Shown here in pieces: positions 2-58,705 of a DNA stretch of 64,000 nt (its first letter is position 1; each line of letters opens with the position of its first letter). Where the stretch lies: contig CBDFLQ010000006.1 of assembly GCA_965249275.1 (NCBI GenBank), positions 224,001-288,000 on the forward strand, read 5' to 3'. The notes beneath the pieces are model-generated. The model was not told where the DNA came from and did not search any database. It saw only the letters and a list, made by a program, of their open reading frames with translations. The position numbers and the translations under genes were made by a program. This DNA comes from Dehalococcoidia bacterium. Its GTDB lineage: Bacteria; Chloroflexota; Dehalococcoidia; Plut-88900.

Positions 2-307
2 CACCGAGCTAAACCCCGCCCCGATCCCGAGAAATGCCCTTCCACCTGACAGTTCATTCACTGTCGCCGTGCCATTCGCCGTCACTGATGGATGCCGCGT
101 GAACGGGTTTGTCACCCCATGCCCGATGTGAATCCGGTGCGTGTTTACTGCCGCCACAGTCATCATTGAATATACTTCCCGGCACAGGTTCTGCGAATCG
201 ATAAGGGTCATTTGCTTGAATCCGCAGTCCTCCGCAACCTGGGCGTGAGTAGCAACCTCATCAAGCCTCAGGTTCCGCCCCATGCCGACACTGAAATCGA
301 ATTTCAT
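2..307 (-). CDS. LLM-class (luciferase-like/Mer-like) flavin-dependent oxidoreductase, 5' part; runs off window start
   Basis: Manual translation from ATG at 307: MKFDFSVGMGRNLRLDEVATHAQVAEDCGF...RIHIGHGVTNPFTRHPSVTANGTATVNELSGGRAFLGIGAG, typical LLM N-terminus; GAGG RBS upstream. Confidence 0.85.
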   Translation of the reverse strand, partial: MKFDFSVGMGRNLRLDEVATHAQVAEDCGFKQMTLIDSQNLCREVYSMMTVAAVNTHRIHIGHGVTNPFTRHPSVTANGTATVNELSGGRAFLGIGAGFSSV

Positions 308-399
308 ATATTATTTCCTCTCTTTCATGACCCTTTCCTAAGGGCGGCATTACCCTATCAACCACCCTAATCCTGTGTCAACGCCATGCTCCTTTAATA

Positions 400-428
400 C
401 TGTCATTCCGAGGCTCCGAGAGGAATCT
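400..428 (+). repeat. Palindromic REP-like repeat family A (CTGTCATTCCGAGGCTCCGCGAGGAATCTA), copy 1
   Basis: Near-identical copies at 3956, 40835, 47233, 58725, 60274, 60909, 63211. Confidence 0.85.
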
Positions 429-540
429 CAAGCGTATGCCTACATCTCAGCTCCTATTGTTCGACTCACCGCCCTTGAACCAATATCCCCAGACGAGTAC
501 GATTGACCTCATACCCACCGACTACTAGGAGAACCCCCCA

Positions 541-1518
541 ATGGCCGTACCACCCCAAGGCGAACTCCACAGACCTCTACTGGAAATATCTGCAGAGGCC
601 AAGGAAGCCCTGTCGGCGAAGCAATTCCTCAACGAAATAGTCGTACGATTTTCGTTGACACCGGAAGACCTGAGCGAAATGATTCCATCAAGCTATCAGT
701 CTCGGATTTTGAACAGGGTGGTTTGGGGGCTTTATGAGTTAGCCAAGGCCGGATTACTTGAAAGACCCTCTAGTGGGCGTTATCAAATAACCACTACAGG
801 CCAGGACTATCTCAAGAAACATAGTGGCAAAATCACGACTTCCCAACTGAAGAAACTAGTAACCCAACATATGCACGAAGACTCTAGCTCTCCACTAACA
901 ATGCCTCCCAACCTCACCGCCACGGCCAGCACCCCGAACGATGACGACACTTCTCCCCAAGACAAAATCGACGCTGGATACCGCGAACTACGGGATAAGC
1001 TAGTCGACGATCTGCTGGACAGCATCTCCCAAATGTCCCCTGAAAGCTTCGAACGGCTGGTTGTGGACTTACTGCAAAAGATGGGTTACGGCAAAGGCCA
1101 GGTCGTGGGCAAAAGTGGTGACCGCGGTATAGATGGCATCATCAACCAAGATGCTCTGGGATTGGAAAAAGTCTACATACAGGCCAAGCGATGGAAAGGA
1201 CAAGTCAGTGAACCGGAAATTCGCAACTTCTCCGGCAGCTTAGACTTCCAGGGAGCCAGCAAGGGCGTCTTTGTTACTACTTCTCGATTCTCTGCAAAGG
1301 CTCGTGATACCGCTAAACAAAGCAAGTTAACCATCCGCCTCATAGACGGCCCGGAGTTGGCAAAGCTGATGATGGACTTCGAGGTAGGCGTAGTCACCCA
1401 ATATGCTTACAAAATCCAAGAACTCGACCAAAACTACTTCATAGATGCGGACCCTGATTTCTTAGATAGGGAAAGTCACTACATGGATATGTACAGTGAC
1501 TCATTCCAACCTCGCTGA
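541..1518 (+). CDS. mrr: Mrr-family (type IV) restriction endonuclease
   Basis: N-terminal winged-helix (NRVVWGLYELAKAGLLERPSSGRYQIT) and catalytic domain FERLVVDLLQKMGY...GDRGIDGII...YIQAKRW...KGVFVTTSRFS...LIDG. Confidence 0.9.
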   Translation: MAVPPQGELHRPLLEISAEAKEALSAKQFLNEIVVRFSLTPEDLSEMIPSSYQSRILNRVVWGLYELAKAGLLERPSSGRYQITTTGQDYLKKHSGKITTSQLKKLVTQHMHEDSSSPLTMPPNLTATASTPNDDDTSPQDKIDAGYRELRDKLVDDLLDSISQMSPESFERLVVDLLQKMGYGKGQVVGKSGDRGIDGIINQDALGLEKVYIQAKRWKGQVSEPEIRNFSGSLDFQGASKGVFVTTSRFSAKARDTAKQSKLTIRLIDGPELAKLMMDFEVGVVTQYAYKIQELDQNYFIDADPDFLDRESHYMDMYSDSFQPR

Positions 1519-1613
1519 GTGTTTACAGTAATGGAACACAATCCCGAAGAGACATGGTAAGCCTCCCCCTCTGATATACTCCCCCCAACCCCCACCCCAA
1601 CGGACATCACACC

Positions 1614-2768
1614 ATGAAATTCGGATACTTCGACACCCGGGTTGACCCCGGCGGCGACCGCCACTATCACCAACTCCTCGACGACCTTCGAGAGGAAGTC
1701 GTCCTCTGCGAACAGGCCGGTTTCCACTCCGCCTGGGTCGGCGAGCACCACATGGGCCCCGAGGGTATGGACCAGCTTCCCAACCCCGTCCTGATGTGCG
1801 CCGACCTCGCCTGCCGCACCAGCCGAATCCGACTCGGCCAGGGCGCCAACCTCTTGCCCTATTGGCACCCCATCCGCCTCGCCGAGGACATCGCCATGCT
1901 GGACCAGATGACCAAAGGCCGCATCGACGTGGCCATTGGCCGAGGTGTCCGTTCCCGGGAGGGCTCCGTCTTCCACCCCAAGTCCGACCCCGCCAACCCC
2001 GAGGCCAACCGCGAGCTCTTCGAAGAGACCATCGATGTCCTCATTAACTCTTGGACCAACGAGTTCTTCTCTCATAAGGGTCCCAACTACACCTTCCCCG
2101 CACCGGGCATCCACTGGAACCACCCCCTGAGCCCTCCAGACCCCCGGTGGTCCGAAGGTGATCTCGTCACGAAGTTGCAAATGCTTCCCAAGCCCTACCA
2201 GAAGCCCCACCCGCCCCTCTGGCAAGTCACCGACAGCGATCGCTCCATAGCCTTCGCCGCCGAGAGAGGCATGAAGGTCATCAACTGGCAGCCTACACCG
2301 GCGCTACTCACGAAGAAGTTCCAGCTTTACGCCGAGACCCGTTCCCGCGCCGAAGGCCGCACCTTCGCCTCAGGAGAGGGTATGGCGCTCATGCGAACAA
2401 CTTACATAGCCCCCACAATGGAGGAGGCCCGCAGAGACGCCGAGGCCGGGATGTTGATGACCTTCCGCTGGACCCAGAACCGCCGACCCCTCATCAACTT
2501 CATGAATCCCGGCGAAGAAGTCCGCCCCGACATGGCACTGGACTGGGACCTGCTGTTTGGAAGAAACCTGCTGATCGGCACCCCGGAATACGTCGTCGAA
2601 AAGCTGGAAGAGCTTCAGGAGACCATCGGGCTGCAGGAGCTTATGACTTACATGGCCATGCCCTACATAGCCCATTCCAAGGTCATGCGCAGCATCGATC
2701 TCTTCGCCGACAAGGTCATGCCCCACTTCCAAAAGGCAGCAGCCCCCCAACCCATCCACGCCTCGTAA
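1614..2768 (+). CDS. LLM-class flavin-dependent monooxygenase (luciferase-like)
   Basis: GFHSAWVGEHH, HPIRLAEDIAMLDQMTKGR, PKPYQKPHPPLW, LFADKVMPHF motifs. Confidence 0.9.
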   Translation: MKFGYFDTRVDPGGDRHYHQLLDDLREEVVLCEQAGFHSAWVGEHHMGPEGMDQLPNPVLMCADLACRTSRIRLGQGANLLPYWHPIRLAEDIAMLDQMTKGRIDVAIGRGVRSREGSVFHPKSDPANPEANRELFEETIDVLINSWTNEFFSHKGPNYTFPAPGIHWNHPLSPPDPRWSEGDLVTKLQMLPKPYQKPHPPLWQVTDSDRSIAFAAERGMKVINWQPTPALLTKKFQLYAETRSRAEGRTFASGEGMALMRTTYIAPTMEEARRDAEAGMLMTFRWTQNRRPLINFMNPGEEVRPDMALDWDLLFGRNLLIGTPEYVVEKLEELQETIGLQELMTYMAMPYIAHSKVMRSIDLFADKVMPHFQKAAAPQPIHAS

Positions 2769-2841
2769 CCTTCCCTCCACTAATGCCCTGCTATGCGACT
2801 TTTGCATTACCCTTCTCAAGGGGCAAAGGGGAAGATCATAT

Positions 2842-2901
2842 CCCCTCTCCGTCGATGGGTCGAAGATGCGCCGAGGCGTAAGAGGGGCTAGGGTGAGGGT
2901 G
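2842..2901 (+). repeat. Host palindrome family D (CCCCTCTCCC-TCGAT-GGGAGAGGG-CTAGGGTGAGGG) without the TIR element, carrying a 21-nt insertion at 2860-2880
   Basis: Comparison with copies at 50052, 46985, 36648, 53637, 16757. Confidence 0.7.
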
Positions 2902-2987
2902 ATCCCAGTATTTCACTGAACATCGTAAGCTGCTAAATAGCCTGGTGTTCACGCATTCCCATTACCACCACCCCCAAGGAGACCCGA

Positions 2988-3920
2988 TTGAAAATCTTCG
3001 TTTCCGGCTCCCTCGCCTACGACCGTATCATGGACTTCTCGGGCCGCTTCTCCGATCACATCATGCCCGACAAGCTCCACATGATTAACATCAGCTTCGC
3101 CGTCAACGGCATAGTAGAAAGGCCGGGTGGCACCGCTGGGAACATCGCCTACGCTCTCCGGCTACTGGGTGAAGACCCGACAATCGTCGCCGCCATCGGC
3201 CGTGACTGCAAGGGTTACTTTCAATGGCTGGACGACAAGGGCATCGACCGCAGTGCCGTCCACGTCGTCGAGGAAGAAGCCACCGCCTGCGCCCACATCA
3301 TCACCGACATGGCCGACAACCAGATCACCGCCTTCAACCCCGGCGCCATGAAACACCCCTCCCCCTTCCCCTCCGAGGCCATAGATCCCGCCCACAGTAT
3401 TGCCATCATTGGCCCAGGCAACCTGGACGACATGGTCGATCTTCCTCAAAGGTTCCGTGACCAGGGCGTCCGGTTCATCTTCGACCCCGGCCAGTCCCTC
3501 CCCATTTGGGACCCTAAACCCTTGGCCCGAGCCATTGAAGGTTCCCATATCTTGATCTCTAATGACTATGAGCTGGCCCTAATCAAGGAGAAAACCGGAT
3601 TAACAGACGATGCCTTGCTCCGCCTCACCAACACCATAATCACCACCAAGGGTGGGCAGGGCTCTGTAATAGTGACCGATGAGGGCGAGACATCGGTCCC
3701 CGCCATCCCCCGCCCCGACACCCTCGTAGACCCCACCGGTGCCGGTGATGCCTACCGAGGTGGACTCATCAAAGGCCTGGTAACCGGACAGTCTCTCGAA
3801 CAATCCTGCCGGTTAGGTACCACTTGCGCCTCCTTCGCCATAGAGGTGCAAGGTACTCAGGAGTACTCCTTCACCCCTGTAGAGTTTGACAAACGCTTCG
3901 CGGAGTACTTACCCCGCTAG
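2988..3920 (+). CDS. PfkB-family carbohydrate/nucleoside (adenosine-kinase-like) kinase
   Basis: GSLAYD, GGTAGNIAY and C-terminal DPTGAGDAYRGG signature; TTG start with AAGGAG RBS. Confidence 0.85.
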   Translation: MKIFVSGSLAYDRIMDFSGRFSDHIMPDKLHMINISFAVNGIVERPGGTAGNIAYALRLLGEDPTIVAAIGRDCKGYFQWLDDKGIDRSAVHVVEEEATACAHIITDMADNQITAFNPGAMKHPSPFPSEAIDPAHSIAIIGPGNLDDMVDLPQRFRDQGVRFIFDPGQSLPIWDPKPLARAIEGSHILISNDYELALIKEKTGLTDDALLRLTNTIITTKGGQGSVIVTDEGETSVPAIPRPDTLVDPTGAGDAYRGGLIKGLVTGQSLEQSCRLGTTCASFAIEVQGTQEYSFTPVEFDKRFAEYLPR

Positions 3921-47421: not shown

Positions 47422-49686
47422 CTAGGTCCCGTTGGAACTCTTCCCCTGAATCCCCTTCAGCACTACACCCGGCGACATCGGAAGCTCCCGGAACCTCACA
47501 CCCGTCGCCTTGTGGATCGCATTCGCCAGGGCCGCGAGAGCCGGCACTATGTTCGCCTCACCCGCCCCCCTCACCCCAAACGGGTGTCCGGGGTTGGCCT
47601 TTTCGACAATCACCGGCTCTATCATCGGTATATCGAGAGCTGTGGGCATCCGATAGTCCAGCAGCGTGAAATTCGCCATCTTACCGTCGTCGCCCATGAA
47701 ATACTCTTCGCTGAGAGCCCAACCAATTCCCTGGGTGGACCCACCTTGAATCTGACCTTCCACGTAGCTCGGGTGTATCGCCTTGCCCACGTCCTGGAAG
47801 GCAGTGAACTTCAATATGGCCACTTTACCCGTCTCCGGATCCACTTCAACGTCGACAATATTCGCCGAATAAGACGCCCCTGAACCGGTCGGGCTAACGT
47901 TCCCCCGACCCACAACCGGCCCCCCTGTCTGCCCGAGCTTGGAAGCCATCTCCCTGAATGTCAATCGAAGCTCGGGGTCCGACTTGTGCCTCACCGAGCC
48001 ATCTACATACTCAACCTGCTCTTCCTCCACCTCCCACAAGATCGCCGCCCTCGAAATCATCTGCCGCCTCACGTCCATCGCCGCCTCATATGCCGCAATC
48101 CCCGTCTTGTAGGTAACTCCGCTTCCCCCTGTCGGAGAGGTGAGCCCCACTTCATCCGTATCCCCAATGCTGGGGTTCACGTCTTCTACTGGTATCCCCA
48201 AGACTTCCGCAAGTTGCTGCGAAATCGAGGCCCGCGACCCGCCAATGTCCACAGCCCCTTCTACAAGACTCACCGTCCCGTCACTCAGTACGTTGGCAAT
48301 TGCACACGCTGGACCAGTGTTGTTCCGGCAGAACCCCATGCTTATGCCGCGCCCCCGGTTCTCCCCATCCAGCGGCTCGCTGTAGTGGGGGTGGGACACC
48401 ACCGCCTCCATCACTTCCTTCGCCCCGACCACCAGGTTCTTTACTCCGTCGGCCCTCCGAGTCCCCTCCGTGGCGACATTCAACATCCGAAGTTCCATGG
48501 GTTCAATGTCCAACACTTCGGCTATCTCGTCCATCAGGTTTTCGACTGCCCAAACTACATTCGGCGCCCCCGGCGCCCTGTAGGCCGCGGTCTTGGGCTT
48601 GTTGTCCACTATGTCATAGGCATCCACCAGTAGATTGTCGATTACATAGGGCGAAAAGATCGCCGCAGCCGCAGCCGCCAGTGGGGCCCCGGGAAAGGCC
48701 CCAGCCTCGAACAGGTATGTCGCCTTTGCCGCAGTAATTCGGCCTTCTTTTGTAACTCCTAGCTTGAGCGACACCTTGCTGCCGCAGCTCGGGCCCGTGC
48801 TCTCGAACACCTCGGCCCGGCTCATGGTCATCTTTACCGGCTTTCCTGATTTCTGGGACAACACGGCGGCCACCGGCTCAAGGTAGGCGCTCAGCTTCCC
48901 CCCAAACCCCCCACCGATCTCCATGGGCACAATCTTCACCTGCGAAATCGGGAGACCGAGGATTTGGGCCACCTGCTGCTGGATGAGGAAATGCCCTTGG
49001 CTGCTGCACCATATCGTCACCCGGCCGTCCGCCGACCACGAAGCCGTAGCATTCTGTGGCTCTATGTAGCCCTGGTGCACCGACTTGTTCTTGTATTCCC
49101 GCTCAATGACCAAATCCGCCTCGGCAAACCCCTTCTCAAGGTCTCCGAAAGCGTGCTGAATATGGTCCGCCACATTCGGCCCATCAATCCCGTCCCCACT
49201 TGACCCGTTCTTCGGCCAGTGTTCGTGAAGCGCCGGGGCCTCCGTTTTCAACGCTTCCTCAATATTTGTGATCCAGGGAAGCGGCTCGTACTCTACTGCA
49301 ATCAGGGCCAGCGCCTCTTCTGCGGCCAGCGCAGTCGTTGCCGCCACCGCCGCCACCGAGTGACCTTTGTAAAGCGCCTTACCCCGAGCCAATATGTTGT
49401 CCGATACCCCTTTCGGGAATATGTTGTCCCGGCTCACGGGGCCCGGGTCTGGCAGGTCCGCAGAGGTCGCCACGGCCCGCACCTCAGGATGCGCCTCCGC
49501 CTTGGAGGTGTCTATGGAAATAATGCGGGCGTGGGGGTGGGGGCTGCGGAGCACCTTGCCGTGAAGCATTCCCGGCATTCTTATGTCGGCCCCGTACTGT
49601 GCTCTCCCGATAACCTTGTCCACGCCATCGTGCCGGATGGGACGGGTCCCGATGACCTTGTACTCCGGCTTCGCAGTAGTTGTCAT
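47422..49686 (-). CDS. Xanthine-dehydrogenase-family molybdopterin-binding large subunit
   Basis: LRSPHPHARI, IGGGFGGK, AYRAPG, VEGQIQGG, DYRMPT, GVRGAGE. Confidence 0.92.
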   Translation of the reverse strand: MTTTAKPEYKVIGTRPIRHDGVDKVIGRAQYGADIRMPGMLHGKVLRSPHPHARIISIDTSKAEAHPEVRAVATSADLPDPGPVSRDNIFPKGVSDNILARGKALYKGHSVAAVAATTALAAEEALALIAVEYEPLPWITNIEEALKTEAPALHEHWPKNGSSGDGIDGPNVADHIQHAFGDLEKGFAEADLVIEREYKNKSVHQGYIEPQNATASWSADGRVTIWCSSQGHFLIQQQVAQILGLPISQVKIVPMEIGGGFGGKLSAYLEPVAAVLSQKSGKPVKMTMSRAEVFESTGPSCGSKVSLKLGVTKEGRITAAKATYLFEAGAFPGAPLAAAAAAIFSPYVIDNLLVDAYDIVDNKPKTAAYRAPGAPNVVWAVENLMDEIAEVLDIEPMELRMLNVATEGTRRADGVKNLVVGAKEVMEAVVSHPHYSEPLDGENRGRGISMGFCRNNTGPACAIANVLSDGTVSLVEGAVDIGGSRASISQQLAEVLGIPVEDVNPSIGDTDEVGLTSPTGGSGVTYKTGIAAYEAAMDVRRQMISRAAILWEVEEEQVEYVDGSVRHKSDPELRLTFREMASKLGQTGGPVVGRGNVSPTGSGASYSANIVDVEVDPETGKVAILKFTAFQDVGKAIHPSYVEGQIQGGSTQGIGWALSEEYFMGDDGKMANFTLLDYRMPTALDIPMIEPVIVEKANPGHPFGVRGAGEANIVPALAALANAIHKATGVRFRELPMSPGVVLKGIQGKSSNGT

Positions 49687-50145
49687 GTAAAAACCCTCAC
49701 TGAAAATTACGCATGTCGACCGGGTCGAAACAGCGTCACAATTCTACCACGACTCACTACCACATCCCCTCCACCATCCCACCCCCAATCCGGAGTCGAT
49801 CCAATCCCGTAGGGGCGACCAGCTGGTCGCCTTACCACGGTCTCTCGCGCCGTAAGGGCAAACCCTCGTGTATCCCTGGTACCGAGGGGCCGCTCACCCT
49901 GAGCGCCGTCGAAGGGTCGAGCGTGGGGACGGCCCACCACCGCAAATTCGTCGCGTCCCTAGAAGGCCCCCCCACCCCATCCCCTCTCCGTCATTCCGGC
50001 CGTCGAGAGCCGGAATCCATCCCCGGAGGCGGCCAGAGCGGGGCGTCCTGTCCCCTCTCCCTCAGATGGGAGAGGGCTAGAGCCTGCCCCGAGTCCCCCG
50101 AGGGGGTGAGGGTGATCCCACTTGGCCAAAAGTGACACGAACCCC

Positions 50146-50175
50146 TTGACTTGATGTGAACGTCTGTACTATATT
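50146..50175 (+). promoter_or_regulatory. Putative sigma70 promoter containing a LexA-box-like site
   Basis: TTGACT-N18-TATATT; GAAC-GTCT-GTAC at 50158-50169 in the spacer. Confidence 0.45.
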
Positions 50176-50211
50176 CACCCCCGATAGGCCAATCACCATT
50201 CTAAGATCAAA

Positions 50212-50735
50212 GGAGGAACCAAAAACCCAGGGAAGCCCACCCGACCCACCCGAGGACTCAACGCCTCAGCCCATCCCAACGGCCCTCGCGCAGGCCCGCG
50301 GCACAAGCAAACGCCGCCATCTCCTCACCCCACGGGTCCCGTGTACCCTTCCCTGACACCCAGGCGATGGAAGGCCCATCGACTCTAAGCAGCATGTAGG
50401 CTTGCGAGACCGGCCTACTCGACGCACCTCTCACCCGGCGCGTTCGAGTCAACGCTATGCGCATAGCCCGCGAATATACGGGGCCCTCCATTGCAGGGCT
50501 CGCCAGGGGGCTTCGCGCCCCCGGCTCTGACTCCACCGTCGTTCCCTTCGGAGATTCCCACCCCCAGCGGCGGAAGTTGAGTCGTACTCCCATCCCTCCG
50601 AGATGGTCGAGTAGCGTCTTGCGGACGAGACACCCCGCCTCTCTCGTCCGCCTCAGTAAAGACACGTGGGGTAATCGCAGGCTGGCCTCCCGCCCCTGCC
50701 CAAGAGTCCCGGACCTTCCGTCGCCTTCCCCCTCC
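50212..50735. ncRNA. Candidate large structured non-coding RNA of unknown class (G-U pairs favour - strand)
   Basis: Nested end-to-end helices and about 10 adjacent internal hairpins (see findings); no credible ORF. Confidence 0.5.
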
Positions 50736-50816
50736 AAAAAACAAACAACGAACCCAAACCCCACAACCGAATACCCCCACCGATACGGCCCTATCCTGCT
50801 GGACAAGCGCACCGCG

Positions 50817-50846
50817 TTGACTACCCCACCCCCTACCCCCTAAAAT
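50817..50846 (+). promoter_or_regulatory. Sigma70-type promoter for a near-leaderless TPR gene
   Basis: TTGACT-N18-TAAAAT, 12 nt before ATG 50859; no SD. Confidence 0.55.
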
Positions 50847-50858
50847 TTACCTAAACCC

Positions 50859-52307
50859 ATGCAAGACAGATACGGCCTCCCCATCACCACGAATTCAGCC
50901 AAGGCCGCCGACCTTTTCGTCGAGGGCCTGGACCTCCTCCTTTCCATGAACATCGGCTCCTTGGAGCGCATTAGGGAAGCCGTCGAAGCTGACGACTCCT
51001 TCGCCACGGCCTACGCCACCCTCGCCTACCGCTACATGGTCGAAGGCAAGGTTAAAGAAGCACGAGAGAACATCTTACACGCCGAGGCCCGCGCCTCTGG
51101 CCTCACCCGCCGAGAGCGCCTCTACGTCGCCGTAATCGATGCCTATGTCCACAGTTCCGGCCCCCGAGCCCTTAGCCTGATGAAAGAGTATCTCTGGGAG
51201 TTCCCCAGGGACATACTCATACTCTACATAGCCAACAACCTGCTCTTCTATGGATGCAGCGGTGGCGGCTCCAAGAGTTATCCTGCAGACCAACTCGCCC
51301 TATGCAGTGAGGTGGCCTCTCACTACGGCGATGACTGGGCATTCCAGAGCCGCTATTCCTTCGCACACCACGAATCAGGTATTCTCGACGAGGCCCTTCG
51401 CCTCGCCGAGGCCTCTCTCAAGACACGTCCCGACAACGCCGACGCTTCCCATTCCGTCGCTCACGTCCTATTCGAAAGAGGCGCCTCCCCGGACGGAGCT
51501 CAATTCCTGGAAGAATGGACCAGGGACTACGACCGCCGAGCTCCCTTTTACGTCCACCTGGCCTGGCATTACTGCCTCTTCGAGCTCTCCCAAGGCCACT
51601 ACAACAAGGTCTTGGACCTTTACAACAGCCGCATTCAACCTGCCGTTGCCTCAGGGGACGGTGGGGCCCTCGCCGACGCCGCAGCCATCGTGTGGAGAAT
51701 GATGCTCTACTCGGACACAGTGCCTCAGATCGACTGGAAGGCACTCTGTTCCCTGGCCGAACCCTCCATCAGCACCGAGGGTACAGCCTACCGGGACGTC
51801 CACGCTGCCCTGGCCTTCGCCGGAGCTAACGATTGGGAGAAAATGACCGCTCTCCTTGACCGCTTCCAGGCCCGAGCCGCCTCCGGCGACACCCTCGCCT
51901 CCGAGATCATGGTCCCTCTTATGAAGGGCCTCCAACTCTTCGCCCACGAACGTCCTCAGGAATCCCTGGAATTGTTGGAACCTCTATTCGGCCCTGCAGT
52001 AATGGACCAGCTTGCCCGCGTTGGTGGCAGTCACGCCCAAAGGGAAGTGCTTGAGGACACCCTCGTAACCTGTTTCCTGGAAACGGAACAATTCGACAAG
52101 GCCAAGTCGATGCTCAACACCCGGCTCTCCCGCCGCCCCTCCCCCCGAGACCTCTTCTGGCTGGCCCGCGCGCAGACCGGTCTTGGCGACTCCGAGGCCG
52201 CCCAGCGCGACCTTGCACAAGCCAACGTCGAATGGACCAACTTCAACCATGACCCCGACTCCCCGGAACTGGCCCGTCTCCGCGCCTCTGTAGCAAGCCC
52301 CCGCTAG
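50859..52307 (+). CDS. Tetratricopeptide-repeat protein, TTC38-like
   Basis: DRYGLPITT, HSVAHVLFE, VHLAWH, GGSHAQR motifs; helical repeats. Confidence 0.8.
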   Translation: MQDRYGLPITTNSAKAADLFVEGLDLLLSMNIGSLERIREAVEADDSFATAYATLAYRYMVEGKVKEARENILHAEARASGLTRRERLYVAVIDAYVHSSGPRALSLMKEYLWEFPRDILILYIANNLLFYGCSGGGSKSYPADQLALCSEVASHYGDDWAFQSRYSFAHHESGILDEALRLAEASLKTRPDNADASHSVAHVLFERGASPDGAQFLEEWTRDYDRRAPFYVHLAWHYCLFELSQGHYNKVLDLYNSRIQPAVASGDGGALADAAAIVWRMMLYSDTVPQIDWKALCSLAEPSISTEGTAYRDVHAALAFAGANDWEKMTALLDRFQARAASGDTLASEIMVPLMKGLQLFAHERPQESLELLEPLFGPAVMDQLARVGGSHAQREVLEDTLVTCFLETEQFDKAKSMLNTRLSRRPSPRDLFWLARAQTGLGDSEAAQRDLAQANVEWTNFNHDPDSPELARLRASVASPR

Positions 52308-57649: not shown

Positions 57650-58705
57650 TGTAGATGTCAGGTAATTCGTTGACAGAATTAGAGAGATTTAAGGGTTTGC
57701 AAAGGGGTCTTTCCGTCCATTGCCTGGTGGGGTCTCTGAGTATTGTAGTAGATCAGGTATTGCTGAAGCTCGTCCTTCAGTTCCGAGACCGACTCGAAGG
57801 TTGTCCCCTCCAGCAGGTCCTCGTTCAAGGTTCTCCAGAACCGTTCTATCTTCCCGTTGGTCTGGGGCCTATAAGGGCGGGTGTAGCGGTGCTTTATGCC
57901 CAGTTCATTGAGCATGCGTTCCATAGGGTGGCCCTGGGTGTTCCTTGGGGAGGCCATCTCGGGGCCGTTGTCGGTGAGGATAGCCTCGAATTGGATGCCG
58001 TACTCCACGTTAAGGAAATTGATGGACTTCAGAGTAGCCAACATCACGGAGAGACTCTTGATGTCTCCAACCACTTCGGCCCAGGCCAGACGGGTGAAGG
58101 CGTCGATGAGGGCCACGAGGTAGTAGCGGTGCTTAGTGCCCACGATGGTATCCCGGCTGAGGTAGTGGCTGTCCAGGTGGCCCAGCTCTCCTGCCCGGGT
58201 CTTGATGATCTTGCGCTTCGACTGCTGCATCGGCTTTGTGAGCCTATTGAAACCGTGGCGTCTGGTGATGGCGTAGATGGTGGAGGGCTTAGGGGTGTTG
58301 TGTTTAAGGATGGGTTTGAGTATGGCATAGATCTCGTAACGGTTGGTACCGTTAAGGCGCTCGTTGATGACCTTCTGCTCAATGTAGGGCAGGGTGCGGC
58401 GGGACTTCCACCCGGGACCCCGCTTACGGGGGAGGAAGGCGTTGTCGGAGGGGGAGAGGAGGAACCGGTTGTAGTACTTGGCGAAGGTCTGACGGCTAGT
58501 GCCGTGGAAGGAGTAGAAGTCCTGGGCGAAGCGGAAACGGGGATGCTTCCCTGCCTTGACCAGTTGATACTCATGGATGAGGAACCGCCACTTCTGAATG
58601 TAGTTCCGTTCAAGGGTGAGGTCCTTGCTATTGTCTCGCATTCTCGCCTCCAGATTGGTGTTGGCCTCTTATACCAATCTGTCAACGAATTACCTAACAC
58701 TTACA
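57650..58705 (-). mobile_element. IS481-family insertion sequence, complete
   Basis: 28-bp TIRs TGTAGATGTCAGGTAATTCGTTGACAGA / TGTAAGTGTTAGGTAATTCGTTGACAGA (25/28), TGT ends, 5-bp target duplication ATTCC. Confidence 0.92.
57679..58641 (-). CDS. IS481-family DDE transposase (rve integrase core)
   Basis: GELGHLD, IDAFTR, LTDNG, RPYRPQTNGKIERF, YNTQRPH. Confidence 0.92.
   Translation of the reverse strand: MRDNSKDLTLERNYIQKWRFLIHEYQLVKAGKHPRFRFAQDFYSFHGTSRQTFAKYYNRFLLSPSDNAFLPRKRGPGWKSRRTLPYIEQKVINERLNGTNRYEIYAILKPILKHNTPKPSTIYAITRRHGFNRLTKPMQQSKRKIIKTRAGELGHLDSHYLSRDTIVGTKHRYYLVALIDAFTRLAWAEVVGDIKSLSVMLATLKSINFLNVEYGIQFEAILTDNGPEMASPRNTQGHPMERMLNELGIKHRYTRPYRPQTNGKIERFWRTLNEDLLEGTTFESVSELKDELQQYLIYYNTQRPHQAMDGKTPLQTLKSL

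Follow-up and report, generated by a model that had tools for sequence, protein, structure and literature searches.

A probable non-autonomous transposon with its own promoter and a conserved RNA fold, located in front of host promoters in an uncultured Dehalococcoidia genus

Introduction

Multi-copy structured RNAs that combine a scaffold with a variable part lie inside several mobile elements, namely as the HEARO and omega RNAs of IS200/IS605 elements (IscB, TnpB) and as the bridge RNAs of IS110. OLE, ROOL and GOLLD RNAs are present singly or in few copies per genome and are not known to be flanked by transposon ends. In this study, we analyzed an intergenic block (positions 50212-50735) of a 64,000-nucleotide (nt) stretch of DNA, hereafter the window, from a Dehalococcoidia bacterium (GenBank assembly GCA_965249275.1, contig CBDFLQ010000006.1, positions 224,001 to 288,000 of the forward strand). 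A first-pass annotation, made from the sequence alone, had proposed that this block encodes a large multi-branched RNA or is a structured non-autonomous mobile element. The second proposal is supported, as the block belongs to a multi-copy family with imperfect inverted ends, target duplications, and filled and empty sites. Window positions 50114-50811 are probably an old, partly degenerate copy of a genus-specific non-autonomous DNA transposon with a promoter-driven structured RNA. Transposon hallmarks, a promoter of its own, a selected fold on the + strand and a position adjacent to host promoters are all observed in this family.

The element resembles HEARO/omega and bridge RNAs in being a multi-copy structured RNA in a mobile element, with a scaffold and a variable part, but no IscB, TnpB or IS110 gene is adjacent to it and Rfam gave no HEARO match. 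With OLE, ROOL and GOLLD it shares the size class of about 500-800 nt, many helices, covariation and the lack of an open reading frame (ORF), whereas its family has 54 copies and insertion polymorphism, and cmscan finds none of these RNAs. Similar to repetitive extragenic palindromic (REP) sequences and bacterial interspersed mosaic elements, it is genus-specific, intergenic, mosaic and reshuffled by recombination, and REP-like units adjoin it; unlike REPs, which are hairpins of about 20-40 nt without a promoter, it forms a complete transcription unit and has inverted ends as well as target duplications.

On the description in those parts of PMC10969869 that are drawn on here, the nearest kind is that of the promoter-bearing, transcribed MITEs (miniature inverted-repeat transposable elements) such as Correia and QMITE. 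Correia/NEMIS of Neisseria, MITEAba12, and QMITE1/2 of Coxiella carry sigma-70-like promoters and are located mostly just upstream of genes; they are 50-500 bp long and typically AT-rich, and their transcripts fold stably, with some giving small RNAs, such as those of QMITE1/2 (PMC10969869). As described there, these MITEs and the element have in common that they are non-autonomous and dispersed between genes, with inverted ends, a target duplication and their own promoter. The element differs in its length of 0.7-0.9 kb and its G+C-rich composition, and the fold of a MITE is, on the same description, essentially the hairpin of its inverted repeats. In contrast to MITEs, the element has a multi-domain fold kept by compensatory changes, a C/A tail and a -35-box target, and no parent insertion sequence (IS) is known for it. 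Our literature search found no description of the element; one record (10.64898/2026.10.21.760802), as far as its available part goes, concerns tandem arrays that are unrelated to it.

Bacterial MITEs are usually viewed as short decaying hairpins, whereas here a non-autonomous element of almost 1 kb keeps a multi-domain fold by compensatory evolution, brings a strong promoter with it and lands at a fixed distance from host -35 boxes. This raises the question of what a folded RNA does in a geneless transposon, for which termination or insulation, copy-number control and help in targeting are candidate answers. If the targeting is true, each genome has about 50-60 host promoters with a transcription unit of foreign origin 5 bp upstream, which would be a natural experiment in promoter insulation and rewiring. 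In addition, because only one uncultured Dehalococcoidia genus holds the family, it could mark the lineage and track insertion polymorphism in metagenomes.

Copy number and distribution

In the following, G000 is the window's own genome (2.9 Mb, seven contigs, 87% complete), G001-G007 and the L-numbered loci are genomes of relatives and extracted loci, and the genus comparison covers eight other species genomes. The block sits within 1170 nt of DNA that separate a - strand gene (47422-49686) from a + strand gene (50859-52307). A DNA search of G000 revealed dozens of copies of the first 165 nt, with about 640 nt alike in four copies, and a covariance model of the conserved 5' domain gave 54 matches in G000, that at window positions 50208-50376 scoring 176 bits. 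The first-pass annotation had stated that the block contains none of the repeat families found elsewhere in the window, which is correct inside the window, but across the genome the block is itself repeated, with 54 copies. A second version of the 5' domain accounts for about 9-10 further copies in G000. The element numbers about 50-60 per genome in the genus.

All eight other genomes of the genus carry the 5' domain, with 23 to at least 46 scored copies each under the covariance model, and none was found in the 52 genomes searched outside the genus (49 from elsewhere in the class and three from other genera of its family). When 185,579 species genomes were scanned for the exact pattern, at least 79 loci were found; the matches listed are all in six complete chromosomes, which are titled "MAG: Dehalococcoidia bacterium". 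No viral contig matched the element, and the metagenome contigs that did were six, short and from one project.

Elements are 698-1102 bp long, mostly 740-870 bp. No transposase gene lies inside, as all 54 copies are only 0.7-1.1 kb long and the ORFs over the window copy have no Pfam match. These comprise one of 184 aa on the - strand and others of 128 aa and 66 aa on the + strand, and Pfam returned nothing for the four ORFs that overlap the window copy. The term "ORF-poor", used for the block at first, is therefore loose, since the 184-aa ORF spans it, yet that ORF is without a Pfam match. The aligned copies differ by indels of 1-2 nt.

Evidence for mobility

The canonical ends of the element are imperfect inverted sequences, (T)GATCCCGTTC... 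and ...GAACGAGTACA. When the consensus ends of 29 copies were aligned in inverted orientation, the score was 27, compared with 13.7 +/- 3.3 in shuffles, and one of 500 shuffles reached it. Among 120 copies, 47 have the right-end block and 29 have both canonical ends. When the 6 nt that precede the left end are set against the 6 nt that follow the right end, a target duplication at least 5/6 identical flanks 22 of these 29 both-ended copies (11 of them at 6/6), compared with 4.5% of mismatched left/right pairs; the duplications are 5-6 bp long, and 17 are distinct, several of the 29 copies being orthologues or paralogues of one another. Because T nearly always occupies the sixth position, the termini of the element may instead be TG and CA and the duplication 5 bp long, an arrangement that would follow the TG...CA rule.

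Comparison of orthologous sites, together with the copy count, answered the check that the first-pass annotation had suggested: in addition to 54 copies, both filled and empty sites were found. In one clean pair, G002 carries an 874-nt insert where G000 is contiguous (C7:435882-84), with flanks 96% and 94% identical and a 3-nt overlap. The insert spans (T)GATCCCGTTC... to ...GAACGAGTACACTC and abuts a -35 box, TTGAGC, that is already present at the empty site. At two further element-free sites of G000, homology with the three filled copies used for comparison (G007 and two other relatives' loci) picks up again no more than 1-2 nt from the -35 box. At the window locus itself, the element is present in G002 and G005 (89-92% identity), a variant is found in G004, and the site is empty in G001 and G007. 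The empty site of G001 keeps the gene and its promoter (TTGCAA, 17 nt, TAAAAT; read by eye). In the G004 orthologue of the window locus (L165:1321-1477), helices H2 and H3 of the 5' domain and the clamp (see below) are kept, and the interior of the 5' domain is unrelated sequence.

The right end lies at a fixed distance from host -35 boxes. Behind it come five variable nt and then TTGAC (T42, T38, G41, A33, C31 of 47 copies), and TAnnnT follows 16-19 nt beyond TTGAC in 40 of the 47. All 23 right-end blocks in G000 are located behind a 5' domain. The simplest reading is that TTGAC would be the target sequence of the transposase and that selection would leave only insertions in front of promoters.

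Architecture of the element

In the family alignment, the left-most shared block of the copies is GTGACAYNNNCCCC. The element's own promoter, of sigma-70 type and close to the consensus, is present in 52/52 copies (TTGAC -35, 17-18 nt, TAnnnT -10) and is followed by a C/A-rich leader of about 30 nt, of which there are three subfamilies, by AAGGAGG, invariant in 52/52 aligned copies, and by a conserved domain of about 160 nt. After this 5' domain come GGCGATGGAAG and a variable middle of 337-523 nt in few subfamilies, which leads to CTTYCATCGCC, the exact reverse complement of GGCGATGGAAG, in 51 of 53 copies. The tail on its 3' side is about 45 nt long and poor in G (A 0.43, C 0.42, G 0.08 and T 0.07 in 119 copies; genome G 0.28). 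It is followed by CAAYYGAAKA and, in many copies, by one to three mini-hairpins and the right-end block GTGTCACTAAYCTRCCGAACGAGTACA. The window copy has the following parts.

50114..50145, + strand: left-end-like block GATCCCACTTGGCCAAAAGTGACACGAACCCC, the counterpart of the canonical (T)GATCCCGTTCACATAGAGGGGTGACAT of other copies (52-copy upstream alignment by eye and left-end consensus)
50146..50175, + strand: own sigma-70-type promoter, TTGACT, 18 nt, TATATT (promoter scan 10/12; block conserved in 52/52)
50210..50216, + strand: Shine-Dalgarno-like AAGGAGG without a start codon (invariant in 52/52; no ATG, GTG or TTG 5-10 nt downstream)
50210..50362, + strand: conserved 5' domain (covariance model, 176 bits; compensatory changes)
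50228-35 / 50348-55, + strand: helix H2 (5'-domain model)
50238-40 + 50243-47 / 50334-38 + 50341-43, + strand: helix H3 (5'-domain model)
50252-56 / 50322-26, + strand: helix H4 (5'-domain model)
50257-79, + strand: invariant single-stranded CUCAACGYCNNAGCCCAUCCCAA (5'-domain model)
50281-84 / 50293-96, + strand: variable hairpin H5 (at least 4 bp in 61 of the 62 distinct sequences)
50300-02 + 50307-08 / 50313-14 + 50316-18, + strand: helix H6 (5'-domain model)
50363..50385, + strand: 5' arm of the clamp, GGCGATGGAAGGCCC-ATC-GACTC (pairing in 120 distinct copies; minimum free energy structure; consensus fold)
50386..50703, + strand: variable multi-hairpin domain, subfamily-specific (consensus fold of eight relatives)
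50704..50725, + strand: 3' arm of the clamp, GAGTC-CC-GGACCTTCCGTCGCC (CTTYCATCGCC in 51/53; clamp pairing statistics)
50726..50775, + strand: C/A-rich, G-poor tail ending in CAACCGAATA (composition of 119 copies; tail alignment)
50776..50811, + strand: degenerate right-end block ...TATCCTGCTGGACAAGCGCA, compared with the canonical ...TAATCTRCCGAACGAGTACA (by eye against the right-end consensus; diverged, with a putative boundary)
50812..50846, + strand: 5-nt spacer and host promoter, TTGACT 50817-22, 18 nt, TAAAAT 50841-46 (promoter scan)
50859..52307, + strand: host gene for a 482-aa protein with tetratricopeptide repeats (Pfam TPR_19, E 5.7e-08; orthologues in 5/5 relatives tested)

The left boundary of this copy is putative, as the flanking 6-mers agree at only 3/6 positions, and its membership of the family follows from the homology of promoter, 5' domain, clamp and tail. 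Transcription of the element would start near 50182, and the tail is a candidate unstructured segment for Rho loading or protein binding. The segment 50812..50846 is the insertion target and lies outside the element. AAGGAGG was considered as a translation start and rejected: it has no start codon, many copies have stop codons after it, and indels break the frame. The same promoter block was also seen at G000:C5:117381 (+), where it drives a tRNA gene-like sequence, and at about 20 other element-free loci, and it may simply be the strong-promoter consensus of the genus.

Structure of the encoded RNA

The first-pass annotation had called the block highly structured, and its folding is indeed better than that of dinucleotide shuffles: for the 524 nt, z is -5.55 (+ strand) and -4.02 (- strand), and 0/100 shuffles are as stable on either strand. 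Among eight randomly chosen copies, z on the + strand ranged from -0.57 to -7.83, and seven of the eight fold better on the + than on the - strand relative to shuffles.

For the 5' domain, MAFFT and RNAalifold on 52 sequences misaligned the variable hairpin and hence yielded no more than 20 pairs, all invariant; they were replaced by a hand-set structure, a covariance model and a refit. In 93 copies from other genomes, 86.3% of the cells are paired, compared with 38-57% when the partners are slid; this alignment was fitted to the model, which favors the model, and the slid controls and the raw sequences agree. Moreover, both partners vary in 18 of the 31 pairs (shuffles: 9.9 +/- 1.5) and 85 cells are double changes (shuffles: 26.3 +/- 4.1), values that 0/500 shuffles reach, these counts being no probabilities because the copies are mutually related. 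H5 has 62 distinct sequences among 109 copies, and 61 of them fold on their own into at least 4 bp.

The variable multi-hairpin domain is closed by a long-range clamp of 15-20 bp, GGCGAUGGAAG.../...CUUCCAUCGCC, which is also found in the minimum free energy structure and in the consensus fold. In 120 distinct copies, its positions 1-10 are paired in 92-100%, and positions 12-14 covary between subfamilies (GC 40/AT 39, TA 38/CG 29 and CG 42/GC 35). The non-Watson-Crick pairs of the clamp in these copies are 33 G.U and 3 A.C, which argues for an RNA of the + strand and not of the - strand; the window copy holds one U.G and one C.A. The strand, left uncertain before, is now assigned as + from these pairs and from the promoter in 52/52 copies. 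The consensus fold of the window's subfamily (eight sequences) contains 133 pairs, 21 with a compensatory change. Taken at the level of sequence comparison, the + strand is predicted to encode an RNA of about 550-600 nt with a selected structure.

All motifs listed in the first-pass annotation occur where it had placed them, whereas its pairing scheme needs revision. The six nested outer helices that it proposed are 82% paired on eight full-length relatives, with two double changes, and 107/500 shuffles do equally well; an alternative closure with its pairings is 89.8% paired in the same relatives, with eight double changes, and is reached by 5/500 shuffles. For four of the six helices there are competing pairings backed by compensatory changes. 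The local partner of GGGAAG is CTTCCC 50348-55; the partner of GAGTC 50704-08 is GACTC 50381-85 and not GGACTC 50254-59; GGCC 50281-84 pairs with GGCC 50293-96; and CGTGGGGT 50665-72 pairs with ACTCCACCG near 50530 in the consensus fold. The true closure is, as judged by covariation, that of 50363-50385 with 50704-50725.

The inner hairpins fared better. Five of those proposed are in the consensus fold (50417-49, GCCCT/AGGGC, 50502-25, 50585-613 and 50621-51), four of them with compensatory or wobble changes, and that at 50529-83 is not kept. The consensus drops both the GACTC/GAGTC outer pairs and the inner CCGTCG pairing of this hairpin, and it assigns the 5' arm to a helix of longer range with about 50664-73; by eye only, compensation of the inner pairs, CCGTCGTC/GACGACGG, was noted in three rows. 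CGATGG/CCATCG (50365-81) competes with the clamp. Thus, the proposal of a large multi-branched RNA holds for the selected + strand fold of about 550-600 nt, but not as a unique RNA gene, and most of its long-range helices were wrong.

No known RNA class was recognized, so that the strong Rfam hit named in the first-pass annotation as a refutation did not occur: Rfam gave no gathering-score match in the 64-kb window, only chance-level matches at E up to 10 on 49600-50950, and nothing but chance-level matches at E up to 0.05 for 20 further copies.

Transcripts and downstream genes

Contigs from four RNA libraries of three studies match 50208-50731 at 88-99% likeness, and several of them fit the window's own middle domain, with 3-8 differences per about 110 nt. 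As these are contigs, partly from paralogues, and DNA carry-over is possible, they do not prove transcription. They leave 50132-50185 and the region beyond about 50780 uncovered and none bridges into the gene, gaps that are uninformative on the transcript ends because only contigs were available and the runs were chosen via the element. Some of the libraries are labelled sponge metagenome.

The first ORF of at least 150 aa on the same strand begins 240-900 nt behind the 5' domain in 40 of 53 copies, and 13 copies have none; these ORFs are mechanical calls, about six of which look dubious. The ten downstream genes scanned fall into ten unrelated Pfam families, namely TPR, leucyl-tRNA synthetase, deformylase, FAD synthetase, ArgC-type, aldehyde dehydrogenase, Lgt, amidohydrolase, sulfate permease and flavoprotein. 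The right end also holds TGTGT-N6-TCTAC, centred about 25 nt before the host -35 box, near -61.5 (for example in L029 and L039), which presumably resembles a CRP/FNR-type site at a class I position.

Search for a partner transposase and host factors

The left-end 11-mer occurs only in element loci among the loci examined, and it is absent from the sampled transposase loci (8 rve, 8 DDE_Tnp_1, 15 IS110, 2 TnpB and 4 reverse transcriptase (RT) loci). A second tally of the sampled transposase loci gives 27 in four Pfam families, 16 of them rve or DDE_Tnp_1. Y1, TnpB, IS110 and RT were not found in G000, which is 87% complete. Because of this incompleteness, and because Rho was missed there, the transposase searches were repeated across the genus, where Y1_Tnp was found in 0/9 genomes and the TnpB zinc-ribbon domain was above the cut-off in 1/8 relatives. 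The rve and DDE_Tnp_1 transposases are common in the genomes of the genus. Rho is present in 8/8 relatives; Hfq was not found in G000, the only genome searched for it and one in which Rho was also missed. A target duplication of 5-6 bp would not fit the footprints usually left by single-strand (IS200/IS605) or DEDD (IS110) elements.

Two candidates were examined. IS110 was rejected as a carrier, as the unit shared between its copies is about 1.15 kb long and excludes the element. An rve IS that abuts some copies was not supported as the partner: it ends in ...CCCCGGTCGTACA, sits on the REP-like sequence GTGAGGGTGATCC and is without the element's ends.

Several positional observations concern the same transposases. 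Four of 11 IS110 copies (L179, L183, L184 and L185; G003, G004 and G002) are located directly upstream of the element promoter in the same orientation. The rve IS, whose transposase is about 408 aa long, directly adjoins the REP-like GTGAGGGTGATCC found ahead of window-type elements (L032 upstream, L074:1340-1370 and L200:2250-2275) and therefore seems to target that repeat. By coordinates, many rve matches lie within about 1 kb of elements. In the window, 57865-58140 (-), which is G000:C6:281865-282140, encodes an rve integrase-core domain of a multi-copy 329-aa IS family.

Possible roles of the RNA and alternative explanations

If the element is a non-autonomous transposon, a transposase supplied in trans would move its DNA, and the RNA would serve the element. 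A possible role, which we prefer but put forward tentatively, is that the RNA makes the element a self-contained transcription unit that insulates the host promoter: the structured body, followed by an unstructured C-rich tail, would load Rho, so that transcription would end before the adjacent host promoter and insertion at a promoter would thereby be tolerated. We consider it rather improbable that the RNA is instead an active part of transposition, with the invariant single-stranded loop and the clamp helping to recognize -35 boxes or RNA polymerase-bound promoters and to direct insertion 5 bp upstream; the element would then represent a new type of DNA transposon that targets promoters with the aid of an RNA. 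The sequence-specific TTGAC target, the selection on the RNA in every subfamily and the lack of a known transposase family that tracks the element would fit such a doubtful role.

Several observations weigh against the interpretation as a non-autonomous transposon of this kind. No autonomous partner IS with the same ends was found among the transposase loci sampled, and in the relatives IS110 (4/8), TnpB (1-2/8), Y1 (0/8) and RT (3/8) do not track the element. Canonical ends are present on both sides in only 29 of the 120 copies; two other left-end types have no defined boundary, and the right-hand 6-mer was not found upstream of them. The window copy itself lacks a target duplication (3/6), and its right end is diverged and too degraded to score. 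At 0.7-0.9 kb, the element exceeds the 50-500 bp given as usual for MITEs in the part of PMC10969869 consulted. Where orthologous loci have flanks 91-97% identical, the identity of promoter, 5' domain, middle and tail is for each part either 88-99% or 39-77%; since both levels occur within one element, parts have been swapped, and recombination shapes the family too. Rho was not found in G000, at its 87% completeness, and the idea of its involvement derives from composition alone. One of the eight random copies folds no better than shuffles (z -0.57). Finally, an RNA fold kept by selection is not usual in dead copies of a transposon and could reflect a function for the host.

The alternative that survives best, although unlikely, is a cis-regulatory leader of the host, in which promoter and structured RNA form a long 5' untranslated region or sensor, its 5' domain riboswitch- or attenuator-like, by which the downstream gene is controlled, and the right end provides that gene's promoter with an activator site. 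The 40/53 copies with a co-oriented ORF 240-900 nt after the 5' domain, the right-end block at a fixed 5 nt from a -35/-10 pair and the selection on RNA structure all agree with it, as does the TGTGT-N6-TCTAC near -61.5, which we take to be CRP-like; in addition, the invariant UCUCCUC could pair with either AAGGAGG or GAGGA, so that a switch would be possible. However, the downstream genes have their own promoters, which persist where the element is absent, and they are functionally unrelated; 13/53 copies have no such gene, and at the same locus the variable domain is swapped for that of another subfamily between sister species. Target duplications and inverted ends are, moreover, not features of leaders.

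It is quite unlikely that the copies are independent genes of a trans-acting large non-coding RNA in the size class of OLE, ROOL, GOLLD and HEARO, with variable domains acting, for example, as guides or decoys. An own promoter, 550-600 nt of selected structure, a conserved scaffold with a variable part and the RNA-library contigs on the element would suit such genes, and AAGGAGG is presumably complementary to the usual 3' end of 16S rRNA. Yet neither the window nor the 20 further copies have an Rfam match, no associated protein gene was seen, the copies bear transposon hallmarks, and the variable domains form a few subfamilies instead of one per copy. A protein-coding or pseudogene remnant, or a chance fold of a G+C-rich spacer, has hardly any likelihood: the 184-aa (-), 128-aa and 66-aa (+) ORFs do overlap the block, where the C-rich + strand has few stop codons, but the four ORFs lack Pfam matches, indels of 1-2 nt separate the copies, the stems show compensatory substitutions, and the block folds at z -5.55 and -4.02.

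Second family and neighboring repeats

The second family, with about 9-10 copies, has the same promoter block, the same clamp and a different 5' domain of about 190 nt (CAGGCCCGAC..GTCGGCCCTAATAAGGAAAGGA..AGGAGTCCCATG...). Its clamp arm (A)GCGATGGAAGGTCC is paired with GGACCTTCCATCGCC, and in the two copies read fully the 3' block is the same. An ATG follows the Shine-Dalgarno-like AGGAG in this family, and the resulting "ORFs" of 246-409 aa look like translated non-coding sequence. The copies in G000 are located as follows.

G000:C6:141657-142290 (+) and G000:C5:168300-169190 (-): second-family copies read fully
C5:156945, C5:735562, C5:272080, C6:946494, C6:841619, C7:453337 and C7:724391: about seven more second-family copies

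Other short repeats adjoin the elements. At window 50024-50077, immediately upstream of the element, is a REP-like repeat, CCCTCTCCC..GGGAGAGGGCTAGGGTGAGGGTGA, which is also found upstream of many other copies; on 50024-50077 the RNA-library contigs add up to depths of 245-3044, many more than on the element itself. A unit of about 22 nt, (GGAACA)TCCGCCTCTGGAGGAC, forms the mini-hairpin that occurs one to three times in tandem between tail and right end. It is found in the tails of L012, L022, L023, L027, L034, L039 and L047 and in the H6 loop of L019 and L021, and it behaves like a tiny insertable repeat. Furthermore, an inverted repeat, GTCATTCCG(A/G)..GGAATC, is located at window 49960-50020, downstream near L037, L042, L053 and L055, and at intergenic positions elsewhere.

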